DNA of 44,388 nucleotides from sequence record PX136376.1. The stretch is one strand, 5' to 3'. Shown here piece after piece: positions 4,989 to 42,467 of this stretch. The notes beneath the pieces were generated by a model. It worked only from the letters and a program-made list of their open reading frames with translations, was not told the origin of the DNA and searched no databases. Both the position numbers and the translations under genes were made by a program. How positions within the stretch are numbered: the first letter of the stretch is position 1; every line of letters begins with the position of its first letter. This DNA comes from a phage.

Positions 4989-5449
4989 TGATGGGCTTTT
5001 TCAAAGTAACTGATGTACCGTCGCGTCGCGTAGTCCAGTACGCCCGTGTGTCTGGCTCTGGCGAGAACGTGGTATTTATTGAAAATGAAAGTGTACTCGG
5101 TACACCAGTAGACGATATGCCGTTTGCTGATAAAACCGGTATTGCACTACCGGCGGCGGGTATGCTTTATGAAATTCCGTATCTGGCTGATGCTGGTGAT
5201 GTGTATTTCTCGGTGCAACCGAAAGACACGGAACTGGCAGACGGCAGCGCAACTATCACTGTCGAAGTTAAGGCGGGTAAAGCGCCGTATGCGCTGACCT
5301 GGTACAAAGACGGCAAGGAAGTGGTCAACGCCCCTGAAGAAGCTTTGTCTCTGACGGTTAACGCGGTGGGTGAATACTTCGTTAAAGTCACCGATGCCGA
5401 TGGGGTAGAGGCCGTCAGTAAAGCTGCGAAGGTTACTAAGCCGGAATGA
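4988..5449 (+). CDS. Ig-like domain protein (possible capsid accessory/decoration protein)
   Basis: 153 aa; beta-rich segment ...ALTWYKDGKEV...EYFVKVTDADG resembling an Ig-like fold; start overlaps preceding stop. Confidence 0.5.
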   Translation: MMGFFKVTDVPSRRVVQYARVSGSGENVVFIENESVLGTPVDDMPFADKTGIALPAAGMLYEIPYLADAGDVYFSVQPKDTELADGSATITVEVKAGKAPYALTWYKDGKEVVNAPEEALSLTVNAVGEYFVKVTDADGVEAVSKAAKVTKPE

Positions 5450-5519
5450 TAAAAAGCCGGAATGATAAAAAGCCGGAATGATAAAAAGCCGGAATGATAA
5501 AAAGCCGGAATGATAAAAA
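5440..5519. repeat. perfect tandem repeat, 5 copies of 16-bp unit GCCGGAATGATAAAAA
   Basis: read directly; first unit contains the stop codon of the 4988..5449 CDS; array abuts a terminator hairpin. Confidence 0.95.
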
Positions 5520-5545
5520 GCCCCGCTATGGGGCTTTATTTTTAT
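5515..5545 (+). terminator. rho-independent terminator
   Basis: stem AAAGCCCC/GGGGCTTT with loop GCTAT followed by TTTATTTTT. Confidence 0.65.
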
Positions 5546-5609: not shown

Positions 5610-5954
5610 TCATTTGCATTTCTCGTCGTATGTTTGTTGTAACTGCGACAGACGATTACCGGCTGTCATCTCGTCCATAGAAGGCCCGGCGCCCGTGTCC
5701 ATAAAGAACAGCGGAACAATCAGGAATGCGCCTGTAACACCGAGTACAACGTTAGTACCTATTTGCTTATTAACACGGTGCGTAGCGTTGGCTTGAGCTT
5801 GTTTTGTCGTGGCGATTCTCGATAGTAACTGATTACATGTTGCCGTTGTATCCCCTGCCTGATAAACCTGTAAAGCCGGGTCTGGCAACGACCTTACGCA
5901 ACCACTCAAACAAACGGCTACAACACCTGCTACTGCTAATTTAATATATTTCAT
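5610..5954 (-). CDS. lipoprotein (candidate superinfection-exclusion or envelope-modifying protein)
   Basis: 114 aa; signal peptide with lipobox LSGC (MKYIKLAVAGVVAVCLSGC); later hydrophobic stretch VVLGVTGAFLIVPLFF; antisense to structural operon. Confidence 0.65.
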   Translation of the reverse strand: MKYIKLAVAGVVAVCLSGCVRSLPDPALQVYQAGDTTATCNQLLSRIATTKQAQANATHRVNKQIGTNVVLGVTGAFLIVPLFFMDTGAGPSMDEMTAGNRLSQLQQTYDEKCK

Positions 5955-6052
5955 AGTTCACCATTACCCGTGTCAATGTCACCAATACCGCTACAAGCCC
6001 AAAGAAACATCACCGCATCAACTGCAATTACTACTGAAATAACGACTAACAT
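5951..6052 (-). CDS. small hydrophobic membrane peptide (33 aa)
   Basis: MLVVISVVIAVDAVMFLWACSGIGDIDTGNGEL; GGAGG RBS 5 nt upstream; stop overlaps lipoprotein start (ATGA); below ORF-track size cutoff. Confidence 0.45.
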   Translation of the reverse strand: MLVVISVVIAVDAVMFLWACSGIGDIDTGNGEL

Positions 6053-6077
6053 GACGGCCTCCCCGGTTCGATAGAAT

Positions 6078-6108
6078 GAATAGTACCCTATTATATTGGG
6101 GTGTGCAA
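6078..6108 (-). promoter_or_regulatory. conserved promoter/operator element, class 1 copy 2
   Basis: GAATAGTACCCTATTATATTGGGGTGTGCAA, identical to copy at 14882-14912; minus-strand TTGCAC-N17-TACTAT upstream of peptide-lipoprotein pair. Confidence 0.5.
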
Positions 6109-6174
6109 ACTATTTATTTACCTATTCCAGTTATTCCTCTCAATTGTAAATGTTGGAATAAACTATTCGAATAG

Positions 6175-6203
6175 TTGACTTTTCACTAAAAATGTGCTAA
6201 GCT
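6175..6203 (+). promoter_or_regulatory. putative sigma70-like promoter
   Basis: TTGACT-N17-TAAGCT; downstream ~200 nt have no convincing ORF and end in a GC hairpin at 6384-6403. Confidence 0.3.
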
Positions 6204-6427
6204 CCACCTGAGCTTGTGAAGTATGAACAAGCGACCGCGGCGCGGGCAGGTAACGGAGCGGGACGTAAGTCCTGAGTGTAGTTACGCTGACGCGTTCGGA
6301 AGGGCCATACTCTATTGCTTGTGTAAAAAGTAACTGGTTTACTGAGATTACGCCGTTTCTATGTTTAAATGATAAGGACTAGCGCCCCGCTTTATGGCGG
6401 GGCTTTACTTATCGAGAAAGGGGAAAC

Positions 6428-6814
6428 ATGAATCTTAAAGCAACTGTCGTAGCAGGAGCATGTTTCATCATCCTGGTTTACGCACACGGCATCTACCAGT
6501 ATCGCAGCGGATGGAACGAAGGCCGGGCTAATCTCGTTTCGCAGCAACAGCAGAAAGCACAGGCTGAGTTAGCGAAGAAAACACAACGGCAGCAGCAGGA
6601 TGAATCGAAGGCCGCCGCCGCTGACAACGAAGGCAAGACGAAATCAGAGGTGATTACCCGTGAAGTCGTTAAGTACATTAAAACGCCTGGTCGCAGCGTG
6701 TGCACTTTTGACCCTGAGCGCGTGCAGCTCAAGTCCCGCGCCGTCGCCAACGCCAATTCCATCCCCGGATACGACGATGATGCAGCCGCCGTGCAAACTG
6801 GCGCAGCCAAGTAG
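6428..6814 (+). CDS. i-spanin (Rz-like)
   Basis: 128 aa; N-terminal TM helix (TVVAGACFIILVYAHGIY) then charged Q/A/E/K-rich periplasmic region; contains embedded +1-frame lipoprotein gene. Confidence 0.7.
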   Translation: MNLKATVVAGACFIILVYAHGIYQYRSGWNEGRANLVSQQQQKAQAELAKKTQRQQQDESKAAAADNEGKTKSEVITREVVKYIKTPGRSVCTFDPERVQLKSRAVANANSIPGYDDDAAAVQTGAAK

Positions 6815-6923
6815 CGACGCTGATGAGGATTTGGCCGTCGACGTTCAGAATGCTGAATGCGTACGGCAACTGAGACTGAAAGTGTTCATGTTGCAGGATT
6901 ACGTGAGGAATATTCTGGAATAG
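6660..6923 (+). CDS. o-spanin (Rz1-like lipoprotein), overlapped architecture
   Basis: 87 aa in +1 frame overlapping the 3' end of the i-spanin; lipobox LSAC; proline-rich mature region (SPAPSPTPIPSP); GTG start inferred. Confidence 0.65.
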   Translation: MKSLSTLKRLVAACALLTLSACSSSPAPSPTPIPSPDTTMMQPPCKLAQPSSDADEDLAVDVQNAECVRQLRLKVFMLQDYVRNILE

Positions 6924-7005
6924 TTGCCTTGCATGTTGGAATAATTTATTCTTGACATGTAAATCCGGGTGGCCCGGATTCCAACGTCCAGGGGACATAC
7001 TGACT

Positions 7006-7707
7006 ATGAATCGTTTTTTACGTTATCCGTTCCAGGAAGAAGCTGGAGCAGAAGATAAAGCTGGTGGCGGTGACGCTCCTAAAATGTTCACCGCTGAAGA
7101 AGTTCAGGCGCTGATTGAGAAAGAAGTTGCCGGGCTTAAGGCTAATCAGGAAGCATTGTTGGCGGAGAAGAAAGAAGCCGCTCGCAAAGCAAAAGAGGCC
7201 GAAGAAGAACGGCAGCGCGCGCACCAGGAGGCGTTAAAAGCCGCTGGTAAGATGGATGAGTTCGAAAAGACGATTCGTAGCCAGTACGACCCTGTGTTAG
7301 CCGAGAAAGACGGTCGCATCTCCAGAATGGCAGAGCGTATCCTCGGCAGCGAACGTAAAGCGGTGCTAGGCTCTTTCGCGGGTGACTTTATTACCCCAGA
7401 AGCAGTGGACATTCTTGCGCCGTTCGTTAAGACTGAGTTCGAAGGCGATGATGTGGTTACTAAGTTTGTTGGTGCAGACGGTAACGTAATCACGACTGAC
7501 CCGGAACAGTTCCGCAAATACCTGCGCGAACACAAGGCGTTTTCGCATTTGATCAAAGCAAATGCAGCTTCCGGCGGCGGGGCTTCCGGTAGCAAAGGCG
7601 GCGGGGCCGCACCAGCGTTTAAAGACATGAGTGAAGCAGAGCGTTTAGCCCTGTATAAATCGAACCCTGCCGAATTTGAACGGCAACTTAAAGCCCTGAG
7701 GAAATAA
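7006..7707 (+). CDS. putative scaffolding protein
   Basis: charged Ala/Glu/Lys-rich predicted coiled coil immediately upstream of major capsid gene; ATG at 7006 chosen within ORF opening at 6952. Confidence 0.55.
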   Translation: MNRFLRYPFQEEAGAEDKAGGGDAPKMFTAEEVQALIEKEVAGLKANQEALLAEKKEAARKAKEAEEERQRAHQEALKAAGKMDEFEKTIRSQYDPVLAEKDGRISRMAERILGSERKAVLGSFAGDFITPEAVDILAPFVKTEFEGDDVVTKFVGADGNVITTDPEQFRKYLREHKAFSHLIKANAASGGGASGSKGGGAAPAFKDMSEAERLALYKSNPAEFERQLKALRK

Positions 7708-40495: not shown

Positions 40496-40785
40496 GCCTT
40501 GCAACTGACATCCTGAAACGAAGCGGCCTTGCGCCGCTGTCACCGAGAGCGAAGACACGTATACACAAGCGTCGCCGTAACGTGCTGTACCCAGAGATAC
40601 AAGAACGGCGTAAAGCTATCCGCGCCTGTGGATTCCAGAACGGAAAGGCCGTGAATCTAGGAGAGTTTAAAACAAAGGAACGCGCAGCTATCGCGAACCG
40701 GCTATTTAATTACTGGAAATCGCTGGGGTACGATGATATTCCGACGAAACCACAGAGACGACAATACATCTGGAGACATAAATGA
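40492..40785 (+). CDS. basic hypothetical protein (97 aa)
   Basis: Lys/Arg-rich; ATGA overlaps both neighbours. Confidence 0.45.
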   Translation: MSLATDILKRSGLAPLSPRAKTRIHKRRRNVLYPEIQERRKAIRACGFQNGKAVNLGEFKTKERAAIANRLFNYWKSLGYDDIPTKPQRRQYIWRHK

Positions 40786-41222
40786 CTACTATCGCGTTTG
40801 ACGGAAAGACAATGGCCTGTGATACCCGTGTTGTGTGCGGGAGTAACTGTTACAACACAGACACAAAGATATACGAGAACGAATTTGTTGTTATTGGGGC
40901 GGCTGGCGATGCGGGGGTTGGTATCCTTTTAGTGGAGGACGATAGTATTTTAGTGCCTAAGCACTACGATTTTGATTTCTCTGCCTTGGTGTGGGTTAAA
41001 GACATCGAAACGTTGTGTAGGGTGGAGTTCTATAAATCTTGGGATTGTGCTCTTAGTTTGGTTATTCAGATTGCGGACAGCTTTTCCGCCGTTGGTTCAG
41101 GCGCCCCTTATGCCCTAGCGGCTATGGAATGTGGGTATTCGGCGCAAGGTGGTGTAGCAGTTGCATCGAAGTTCGACCCTGACACCGGCGGCAAGATTAT
41201 TACCAAACAACTATTAGGATAA
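40782..41222 (+). CDS. HslV-like Ntn-hydrolase peptidase (proteasome beta-subunit fold)
   Basis: N-terminal MTTIAFDG (Thr2 nucleophile position), VIGAAGDAGVG and AVGSGAPYALAA align with E. coli HslV MTTIVSV, IAGFAGGTAD, IAIGSGGPYAQAA (recalled); 146 aa. Confidence 0.65.
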   Translation: MTTIAFDGKTMACDTRVVCGSNCYNTDTKIYENEFVVIGAAGDAGVGILLVEDDSILVPKHYDFDFSALVWVKDIETLCRVEFYKSWDCALSLVIQIADSFSAVGSGAPYALAAMECGYSAQGGVAVASKFDPDTGGKIITKQLLG

Positions 41223-41236
41223 TTCCTACCCGTGGT

Positions 41237-41276
41237 ATCCTCCAGTTACTGCATACTTAATACGCACCTGGAGGAT
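41237..41276 (+). promoter_or_regulatory. inverted repeat able to sequester the holin RBS
   Basis: ATCCTCCAG (41237-41245) is exact reverse complement of CTGGAGGAT (41268-41276), which contains the GGAGGA Shine-Dalgarno of the holin gene. Confidence 0.4.
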
Positions 41277-41281
41277 TCATC

Positions 41282-41590
41282 TTGGATAAATTTACTGAAA
41301 CTGTGACGGGGTGGCTTCTCGCTGCCGCACTAGCCGGAGGGGTAATCGGACTAAGGCAACATAAGTCCGCTATTTCCGGCCCTATCGACGGCTTCTGCTT
41401 TATTGCAACTGGCTTCACTTGCGCCGTATTTGGCGCACCTCTCGCAGCTCAATGGTTTGGAATCACGGGCGACCGTGAAATCGCAGGCCTGGGCTTCATC
41501 ATTGCCATTCTCTGGATGCCTATCTATTCCCGCCTTTCTGGCATCGTATCGGGCGGCGATATTGCCCGCCCAGGAGGACCACATGACTGA
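41282..41590 (+). CDS. holin (three predicted TM helices)
   Basis: 102 aa; TM segments WLLAAALAGGVIGL, FCFIATGFTCAVFGAPLAA, IAGLGFIIAILWMPIY; TTG start inferred 6 nt after GGAGGA. Confidence 0.6.
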   Translation: MDKFTETVTGWLLAAALAGGVIGLRQHKSAISGPIDGFCFIATGFTCAVFGAPLAAQWFGITGDREIAGLGFIIAILWMPIYSRLSGIVSGGDIARPGGPHD

Positions 41591-41855
41591 GCTATTCTGG
41601 TTTGCCGTAATGCTGGCAATCGGTGGCACATCGCTGTTTAATGTATACCACCCCAGTGTTGACGATGGGTTATTTGGTCGGGTGCTCTACATCCTGACTG
41701 CTATTGTCTGCGCCGCAGGATGTATCCACCTGTTACCGGGCAGCATGTCTCCGACGCTGCCTGAGACATTAATCACATTAGTTGCGCTGCGCCAGATTCG
41801 TCAGGCGTGGCTGTCATACGGAGGACATAAGCGTGTCTCGAAACATTTCAGATAA
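41583..41855 (+). CDS. second lysis-associated membrane protein (two TM helices; holin/antiholin-like)
   Basis: ATG 41583 preceded by AGGAGG; TM segments LFWFAVMLAIGGTSLF and VLYILTAIVCAAGCIHLL; overlaps endolysin start. Confidence 0.5.
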   Translation: MTELFWFAVMLAIGGTSLFNVYHPSVDDGLFGRVLYILTAIVCAAGCIHLLPGSMSPTLPETLITLVALRQIRQAWLSYGGHKRVSKHFR

Positions 41856-42321
41856 TGGATTGCATTTTACCGCTGCATTCGAGGGGTTCCGTGGAACTGC
41901 GTATCGTGCTACGCCGAACGAGAAGTACCTTACTATTGGCTACGGAAGCTACGGCCCTCATGTGTATGAAGGGCAGAAGATTACGAAGGGTCAGGGACTC
42001 CTGTTACTGAATCGTGATATGGCTAAGGCCGTAGCTGCGGTTGACGCAGCGGCACACCACTCCCTGACACAGGCACAGTTCGATGCAGTGTGCGACCTGG
42101 TCTATAACGCTGGTGCTGGTGTGATTGCCGCTGCCACCGGTACGGGTAAGGCACTGCGTTCCGGTGATGTTGCGACGCTGCGGGCTAAGCTGGCGTTGTT
42201 CATCAACCAGAACGGCAAACCATTACTCGGCCTGCGCCGCCGTACAGCTGGTCGTCTGGCGCTGTTCGACGGTAAACCGTGGCAGGAGGCAGAGGCTATC
42301 GGGCGCGCGGTGAAAGGTTGA
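41833..42321 (+). CDS. endolysin (T4-lysozyme/GH24-like)
   Basis: FEGFRGTAYRATPNEKYLTIGYG matches the phage lysozyme signature; GTG start 8 nt after GGAGG. Confidence 0.8.
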   Translation: MSRNISDNGLHFTAAFEGFRGTAYRATPNEKYLTIGYGSYGPHVYEGQKITKGQGLLLLNRDMAKAVAAVDAAAHHSLTQAQFDAVCDLVYNAGAGVIAAATGTGKALRSGDVATLRAKLALFINQNGKPLLGLRRRTAGRLALFDGKPWQEAEAIGRAVKG

Positions 42322-42385: not shown

Positions 42386-42417
42386 ATCCCGGCCCTGACC
42401 CAGCCGGGATTTTTTTA
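42386..42417 (+). terminator. rho-independent terminator after lysis cassette
   Basis: ATCCCGGC-cctgaccca-GCCGGGAT followed by TTTTTTT. Confidence 0.7.
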
Positions 42418-42438: not shown

Positions 42439-42467
42439 TTGACTATTATCTATGACCATATTATATT
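42439..42467 (+). promoter_or_regulatory. putative sigma70-like promoter (related to rightward reading of class 1 element)
   Basis: TTGACT-N17-TATATT; spacer resembles class 1 spacer; upstream of gene at 42502. Confidence 0.4.

Follow-up and report, generated by a model that had tools for sequence, protein, structure and literature searches.

In phage lambda, the spanins accumulate in advance and are restrained by the intact peptidoglycan until the holin triggers, and in this model the timing of lysis is set by holin triggering, not by spanin supply. The control region of the lambda late operon has a layout of pR', 6S RNA, and tR'. The LysB and LysC genes of P2 lie within a lysis cluster, beside the holin and endolysin genes, and the T7 spanin genes are flanked by packaging genes 18 and 19 and map far from endolysin gene 3.5.

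The closest described systems are the overlapped spanins of the "Jersey" family, which was defined with 27 phages (Kongari et al. 2018, PMC6139136). Members include Jersey, SETP3, SETP13, FSL SP-101, K1G, K1H, K1ind1-3, and HK578, so that the family spans Kagunavirus (K1G, K1H, K1ind1-3), Jerseyvirus (SETP13, FSL SP-101), and HK578-like Dhillonvirus (PMC6139136). Its genes share a 155-bp overlap and its o-spanins have constant cysteines at positions 45 and 67; relatives of the FSL SP-031 type overlap by only 8 bp (PMC6139136). The genome paper of Golestan assigns the spanin to ORF7/8 and the holins and endolysin to ORF66-68, and that of fBC-Eco01 also reports spanins that are split from the other lysis genes. 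In an RNA-seq study of Kagunavirus K1B4, lysozyme (018), a Mu-F-like head protein (028), and capsid (033) were all classified as "middle", with no class given for spanin genes 030 and 031 (PMC12645636).

The genome and the loci compared

The window, i.e., the whole 44,388-nt stretch of DNA that was analysed, is a complete siphovirus genome that starts at the ATG of the small terminase gene. It belongs to a coliphage of the genus Kagunavirus (Guernseyvirinae), and neither tRNA nor tmRNA genes were found anywhere in it. The BASEL Kagunavirus isolates Bas70-76 are 92-96% identical to its first 25 kb, and Escherichia phages phiEc4 and Golestan match at ~97% around the spanin region. Both Golestan and fBC-Eco01 are filed under Guernseyvirinae, genus Kagunavirus. 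For comparison we used 48 related IMG/VR loci together with annotated phage records; the counts of conservation below refer to 53 related loci.

An overlapped spanin pair

The two open reading frames at 6428-6923 very probably constitute an overlapped two-component spanin of the Jersey family, which would act and be transcribed along the lines proposed below. The features of the pair are as follows:

6428-6814, + strand: i-spanin gene, ATG start, 128 aa, with a predicted N-terminal transmembrane helix at about residues 5-23
6646-6652, + strand: Shine-Dalgarno sequence AGAGGTG for the o-spanin, 7 nt 5' of its GTG and within the i-spanin coding sequence
6660-6923, + strand: o-spanin gene, GTG start, 87 aa, +1 frame, with lipobox LSAC and Cys22

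The i-spanin has the makeup of a small inner-membrane protein of type II: a single transmembrane domain is predicted at its N-terminus, and its periplasmic domain would be largely helical. Its hydropathy peaks in the 19-residue window at residues 5-23 (Kyte-Doolittle mean of 1.85), and the remainder is a charged domain rich in Gln, Lys, and Glu, predicted to be periplasmic and bearing a single cysteine (C92). A single-sequence AF2 model predicts one long helix at residues 3-64 (pLDDT 75-92) and a second helix at residues 69-79, with low confidence at the C-terminus and throughout the C-terminal half. The protein matches phrog_2536 ("Rz-like spanin") over its full length (E 4.8e-57) and shares 63-98% identity with its counterparts among the IMG/VR loci. 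Searches against Pfam returned sub-threshold matches only, the best of which was DUF2514 (16.8 bits against a cutoff of 26).

The o-spanin begins with MKSLSTLKRLVAACALLTLSAC, which comprises a basic n-region, a hydrophobic core, and the lipobox LSAC with Cys22, i.e., a signal for signal peptidase II. The residues at +2 and +3 of the lipobox cysteine are both Ser, and there is no Asp at +2 that would retain the protein at the inner membrane, so sorting to the outer membrane is predicted. The lipobox is followed by a Pro-rich linker, and residues 23-50 include nine prolines. The conserved C-terminal region carries Cys45 and Cys67, both of which are invariant across the loci. Together with Cys92 of the i-spanin, these are periplasmic cysteines suited to intermolecular disulfides. 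The o-spanin matches phrog_1267 ("Rz-like spanin") at residues 9-86 (E 3e-21) and phrog_5672, a family of 47 aa, at residues 41-87 only (E 2e-30). Kagunavirus records that match over the full length are 87-99% identical, and a tblastn search aligned residues 37-87 with SETP13 and FSL SP-101 at 82-84% identity. No Pfam match was obtained at E up to 0.1, and NCBIfam NF038368 (P2_Rz1) stayed below its cutoff (17.3 bits against 27, E 0.004).

The two genes overlap by 155 nt, the o-spanin gene extends 109 nt beyond the i-spanin stop, and the offset between the starts (6660-6428 = 232 = 3x77+1) places the o-spanin in the +1 frame. Both proteins are homologous to those of the Jersey family and share with it the 155-nt overlap and the o-spanin cysteines Cys45 and Cys67. 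The lipoprotein signal and the position of the o-spanin start are preserved in 53 of 53 loci despite divergence of the signal-peptide sequence; the lipobox reads LSAC or LASC in Kagunavirus, LSGC or LNGC in Jerseyvirus, ITGC in Cornellvirus, and LSAC in Dhillonvirus. Relatives start the o-spanin with GTG or ATG at the same fixed position after a conserved GGAGG, and the Shine-Dalgarno region is kept as cggagg(c/t)(t/g)at(c/t)accc. In Cornellvirus-type loci, the i- and o-spanin genes overlap by 8-14 nt.

We computed codon-position variability on 42 unique aligned sequences. In the segment past the i-spanin stop that encodes only the o-spanin, 0.78 of the o-frame third positions are variable, compared to 0.20-0.37 elsewhere. 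Within the overlap, variation tracks the i frame, so that the signal peptide and linker of the o-spanin absorb the changes and are thus tolerant of them. The PHROG matches, the conservation in 53 loci, and the third-position variation in the o frame argue that the pair does not arise by chance. A whole-genome scan of both strands found no other gene pair that encodes a transmembrane protein and a lipoprotein.

The sequence-only reading had proposed a two-component spanin pair of textbook Rz/Rz1 type, with lipobox LSAC and a Pro-rich o-spanin. Both open reading frames are as it described, and the PHROG matches (phrog_2536 and phrog_1267) bear out the functional class. The assignment to the Rz/Rz1 type does not extend to the protein family, as no Rz, Rz1, or LysC model is reached, nor to the gene architecture, which is overlapped here and not embedded. 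Its choice of the GTG start, which retains the lipobox, improves on many database annotations that give the last 47-48 aa of the protein.

Lysis genes at two sites

The holins and the endolysin are encoded near the opposite end of the genome, where the sequence-only reading had located them (41282-42321), and all three genes have PHROG matches:

41282-41590 and 41583-41855, + strand: two holin genes (phrog_2359, E 2e-31; phrog_2508, E 5e-33)
about 41860-42321, + strand: endolysin gene (phrog_7, E 2e-34; phrog_33703, E 6e-48), with an uncertain start (GTG at 41833, or 41860)
42387-42416, + strand: strong intrinsic-terminator-like site after the endolysin gene, with the stem TCCCGGC/GCCGGGA (42387-42393/42403-42409), a 9-nt loop, and seven T

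The endolysin is of the soluble lysozyme type, with no N-terminal membrane segment by hydropathy. Counted across the genome ends, 8,494 nt (2067+6427) separate the endolysin stop from the i-spanin start, and 9,534 nt separate the start of the holin genes from the i-spanin start. The spanins are thus not contiguous with the holins and endolysin in a canonical clustered lysis cassette but lie between head genes, as had been noted from the sequence. A second spanin or a u-spanin beside the endolysin was considered and rejected: a whole-genome lipoprotein scan of both strands returned only the o-spanin and a gene at 5954-5610. The latter, an opposite-strand insert that neighbours the spanins, encodes a further lipoprotein candidate.

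The spanin genes occupy a slot that is fixed in the lineage: head-morphogenesis gene, Hoc-like gene, variable inserts, spanins, scaffold, and capsid. The order of the head-morphogenesis, Hoc-like, spanin, scaffold, and capsid genes is the same in 53 of 53 loci for which flanking sequence was available, and none of the 53 has a holin or endolysin gene within 3 kb of the spanins. In relatives, the Hoc-like and i-spanin genes are ~300-1,100 nt apart, and this interval is where the variable inserted genes lie. Golestan has the same whole-genome layout as the window. Dhillonvirus JLBYU60 also shares this layout, with holins and lysozyme at 42.3-43.3 kb and spanins at 4.6-5.1 kb, and its i-spanin gene begins inside the 3' end of the head-morphogenesis gene. 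The o-spanin was detected by tblastn in 665 phage records. The placement of spanins among the head genes is therefore real and ancient within the lineage, and it is already known from published work.

The two groups of lysis genes belong to different transcription units because the strong terminator-like site follows the endolysin gene. We read this site directly from the sequence, as the automated terminator scan was limited to 8-nt loops. Bidirectional terminators are also located 3' of the portal and Hoc-like genes.

A promoter-like site, structured leader, and hairpin upstream of the spanins

The intergenic sequences on both sides of the spanin genes contain several conserved or palindromic elements:

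6161-6176: perfect palindrome AACTATTCGAATAGTT, overlapping the upstream side of the promoter-like site
6175-6203, + strand: putative sigma-70-type promoter-like site with TTGACT, a 17-nt spacer, and the extended -10 TGcTAAGCT
6235-6320, + strand: structured part of a non-coding leader, with four covarying helices
6235-6245/6291-6299, 6259-6263/6270-6274, 6276-6278/6283-6285, and 6302-6305/6317-6320, + strand: the leader helices, from alignment covariation
6384-6403, + strand: G+C-rich hairpin, 25 nt 5' of the i-spanin ATG, terminator-like with a weak, interrupted T-tract
6938-6957, + strand: inverted repeat GGAATAATTTATTC and, after it, TTGACA, in the gap from the o-spanin stop to the scaffold ATG (7027), unique in the window

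In the alignment, the -35, the TG, and the -10 of the promoter-like site are preserved in Kagunavirus and Jersey types, and the base after the TG varies; the Jersey-type version reads TAGACT, 17 nt, TGtTACGCT. The leader is ~200 nt long, and its variability is far below that of synonymous sites in the spanin genes (MAFFT-based figures). Of the cells in the leader helices and the hairpin, 97.7% are paired, compared to 29-48% when the partners are slid, and seven pairs show compensatory double changes (covariation score of 0.261 versus 0.079 or less). The stem of the hairpin occurs as CCCCGC/GCGGGG, CCCTGC/GCAGGG, CCCGGC/GCCGGG, and CCCGAC/GTCGGG, all of which are compensatory variants. The z-score of the single-sequence leader fold is only -1.5, and structural support comes instead from the covariation. 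G-U pairs favour a leader RNA with the sequence of the + strand. No Rfam match was found in 5900-7100 at E up to 1.

An annotated 36-aa open reading frame at 6223-6333 was considered as a gene or leader peptide and rejected as non-coding: about 8 of 38 close relatives carry frameshifts in it and Jersey-type relatives lack it, although the DNA itself is conserved. The motif GGAATAATTTATTCTTGACA was considered as a repeated element and has a single occurrence in the window. The T-tract of the hairpin is poor, most so in Jersey-type relatives, and the hairpin would therefore be at best a leaky terminator. A similar arrangement of inverted repeat and -35 to that at 6938-6957 is found at 6150-6180, and the inverted repeat at 6938-6957 with its TTGACA may provide scaffold and capsid with a promoter or operator of their own. 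Ten small open reading frames on the + strand were searched against Pfam for a Q-like antiterminator or regulator, and none was found; there was a sub-threshold match to NinH only.

Based on the consensus matches and their conservation, the spanins are most likely transcribed together with the head genes from the putative promoter at 6175-6203, by read-through of the leader and the leaky hairpin, and the scaffold and capsid genes may receive an extra boost from a second promoter. We further suggest, tentatively and with the odds leaning against it, that promoter, leader, and hairpin form a previously undescribed element, either a cis-regulatory RNA or the gene of a small RNA, which would gate read-through to the spanins, scaffold, and capsid and set spanin dose and timing independently of the holins and endolysin. 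Such gating could operate by attenuation or antitermination. The unit may be new, with no described counterpart in Rfam.

Proposed mechanism and alternatives

In the mechanism that we propose, the N-terminal helix would anchor the i-spanin in the inner membrane, and the o-spanin, translated from the GTG at 6660, would acquire its lipid at Cys22 and be sorted to the outer membrane. Both proteins would be joined via their C-terminal periplasmic parts, and disulfides involving Cys45 and Cys67 of the o-spanin and Cys92 of the i-spanin are probable stabilisers of the complex. The complex would bridge the periplasm, restrained by the peptidoglycan mesh, until the holins (41282-41855) release the endolysin (gene end at 42321) and the wall is degraded. 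After loss of the wall, the spanin complexes would fuse the outer with the inner membrane and thereby disrupt the outer membrane. Since spanins of this kind would be made in advance and gated by degradation of the wall, their genes need not adjoin those of the holins and endolysin, and co-timing with them is not required.

Many database records favour a different o-spanin, a product of 47-48 aa that starts at the internal Met-Met (residues 40-41), lacks a signal peptide, and is not a lipoprotein. The protein is annotated in this form, cut to its last 47-48 aa and without the lipobox, in Golestan, S532, SETP13, fBC-Eco01, and K1B4, and the coverage of phrog_5672 agrees with it. We give this reading almost no credence: the frame is open 5' of the commonly annotated internal Met in every locus (48 IMG/VR loci and the annotated records) and always encodes a basic n-region, a hydrophobic core, and the lipobox cysteine; the upstream start, alternating between GTG and ATG, stands behind the conserved GGAGG; the alignment to phrog_1267 reaches back to residue 9; and the 155-bp overlap reported for the family fits the long form (PMC6139136). 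A function of the whole pair in the envelope other than lysis, such as superinfection exclusion or receptor masking, with the outer membrane disrupted in another way, would agree with its position outside a lysis cassette and beside slots for variable inserted genes, with the lipoprotein encoded by the adjacent opposite-strand gene, and with scores that do not reach the thresholds of the curated Rz and Rz1 models; moreover, an experimental test of any Jersey-family spanin was not found in the literature searched. True inserts come and go, however, whereas the pair is universally conserved and keeps one fixed place in over 600 phage records of Guernseyvirinae and Dhillonvirus. It also combines the full set of spanin features (type II transmembrane protein, outer-membrane lipoprotein, +1 overlap, and conserved periplasmic cysteines) in a genome without another spanin candidate, and its family was classed as spanin in a dedicated survey (Kongari et al. 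2018, PMC6139136), which makes a non-lysis function very improbable.

The overlapped lysis spanin thus remains our preferred reading of the pair, and the question that follows concerns its separation from the other lysis genes. The split could represent a deliberate temporal uncoupling, in which the spanins follow another schedule than the holins and endolysin and this schedule matters for lysis. Such a role would suit the separate transcription units, with terminators after the endolysin, portal, and Hoc-like genes, the putative dedicated promoter, leader, and hairpin of the spanins, and the location of the holin and endolysin genes, which close a run of small genes beginning in the divergent early control region. 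We nonetheless regard it as unlikely. Holin triggering, not spanin supply, sets the timing of lysis in the lambda model, and the unlinked spanins of T4 and T7 function without a known special role in timing. The lysozyme, head-protein, capsid, and spanin genes are all co-oriented, and the K1B4 lysozyme, Mu-F-like head protein, and capsid share the "middle" class (PMC12645636). The sequence-only reading had taken the split to imply separate transcriptional timing; this goes beyond the map, which shows separate units only, and sits poorly with the single temporal class of K1B4 lysozyme and capsid.

Implications

As a spanin finding, the pair changes little, because head-module spanins of Guernseyvirinae and Dhillonvirus were already catalogued. 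Many public records, as well as phrog_5672, hold the o-spanin without its lipoprotein signal, and these truncated annotations make automated lysis-gene calls unreliable in a phage group that is widely used in therapy and in the BASEL collection. The promoter-leader-hairpin unit offers a testable handle on late-gene control in a group whose transcription is essentially unstudied. If the gating reading of the leader is true, spanin dose and timing would be set independently of holin and endolysin.

Comparison with known spanin systems

The pair resembles lambda Rz/Rz1 in functional class, in predicted topology (a type II inner-membrane protein and a +1-frame outer-membrane lipoprotein), and in its periplasmic cysteines. 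The lambda Rz1 gene lies entirely inside Rz and the two end the S-R-Rz/Rz1 cassette, whereas the window pair is overlapped and lies 8.5 kb from the endolysin gene; neither protein falls within the lambda Rz (Pfam Phage_lysis) or Rz1 family. With P2 LysB/LysC the pair has in common the overlapped architecture and a weak similarity, below the cutoff, between the o-spanin and P2_Rz1, which does not amount to membership by sequence. The T4 spanins PseT.3/PseT.2 are, like the window pair, unlinked from the other lysis genes (t and e), but they are unrelated in sequence and of separated architecture. Similarly, T7 gp18.5/gp18.7 are unlinked from the endolysin gp3.5 and unrelated in sequence, and their architecture is embedded; a further difference is that the T7 holin gene 17.5 is still near the spanins.

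The region upstream of the pair recalls the lambda pR'/6S RNA/tR' region by analogy of layout only (a putative promoter, an RNA of ~200 nt, a terminal hairpin, then spanin and head genes). It differs from that region in its weak T-tract and in having no Q-like antiterminator among the genes searched, no sequence similarity, and no Rfam match.

The Jersey-family spanins are direct sequence relatives of the pair. They have the same overlap and the same Cys45 and Cys67, show the same divergence of the N-terminal lipoprotein signal, and are related in the same way to variants with an 8-bp overlap ("separated"), such as those of the FSL SP-031 and Cornellvirus type. We see no essential difference between them and the window pair, which is an isolate-level variant of this family.

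A conserved unit upstream of the spanin genes

In the window, the spanin genes are preceded on their 5' side by a conserved unit (6161-6403), which comprises the following elements:

within 6161-6403: palindrome AACTATTCGAATAGTT
6175-6203: promoter-like site with an extended -10
helices within 6235-6320: non-coding leader of ~200 nt with four helices that show covariation
6384-6403: hairpin whose stem is maintained through compensatory changes

A search of Rfam returned zero matches for the 6161-6403 unit. The 36-aa ORF annotated at 6223-6333 carries frameshifts in several close relatives.

Architecture and annotation of the spanin pair

Homologous spanin pairs from related phage loci (L005 2062-2656, L042 3001-3589, and L004 2203-2644) were compared for architecture and vary in how far the two genes overlap: the Kagunavirus and Jerseyvirus pairs share 155 nt, those of Dhillonvirus about 120-130 nt, and those of Cornellvirus-type loci 8-14 nt. 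The Dhillonvirus i-spanin gene also begins within the final part of the head-morphogenesis gene. Many public records give the o-spanin as a 47-48-aa protein that begins at an internal Met and therefore lacks the signal peptide and lipobox (L001 5586-5729, L002 4275-4421, and 2513-2656 in both L003 and L006). The match to phrog_5672 (47 aa) is confined to the C-terminal part of the o-spanin, residues 41-87, and the record of Salmonella phage S532 has the labels of i-spanin and o-spanin interchanged.

Inserted genes and a tandem repeat next to the Hoc-like gene

The slot between the Hoc-like gene and the spanin genes holds an inserted block:

5610-6052, - strand: genes for a 114-aa lipoprotein and a 33-aa hydrophobic ORF

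The lipoprotein has the lipobox LSGC and matches phrog_13472, a family of unknown function. This block is rare (~8 of 483 related phage records, two of the 53 loci) and may have a superinfection-exclusion or envelope-modifying function. A perfect 16-nt tandem repeat of AAGCCGGAATGATAAA (5438-5522, 5.3 copies) begins within the Hoc-like gene, at its final codons and stop, and the 3' end of the repeat falls in a bidirectional terminator (5517-5537). The array seems to have expanded in the window genome, because alignments of the closest relatives across it begin only at 5486 or 5502.

A recurrent promoter- or operator-like motif

A phage-wide motif consists of GAATAGT, 4-6 nt, and CTATTATA, to which some copies add TTGGGGTGTGCAAG:

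3870, 6078, 14882, + strand: full copies
42433, + strand: degenerate copy
27505, 31990, 34883, 34927, 38368, 39433, - strand: further copies

All three full + strand copies have an opposite-strand gene block before them and a structural gene block after them, and the - strand copies that precede replication genes contain a perfect TTGACA -35 element. The motif is probably a binding site for a common regulator.

The holin-endolysin region

The following features flank the holin and endolysin genes:

40782-41222: HslV-family peptidase-like protein, encoded directly 5' of the holins (phrog_1040, E 1e-33)
41239-41245 (CCTCCAG) and 41268-41274 (CTGGAGG): 7-bp inverted repeat upstream of the first holin gene
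42387-42416: strong hairpin resembling a terminator, with seven T after it, 66 nt 3' of the endolysin stop
42439-42467: promoter-like site (TTGACT, 17 nt, TATATT) downstream of that hairpin

The terminator-like hairpin was overlooked by the consensus scan because its loop is 9 nt. The first holin gene has a TTG start at 41282, and the inverted repeat would sequester its Shine-Dalgarno sequence, a predicted arrangement that recalls how translation of lambda S is controlled.
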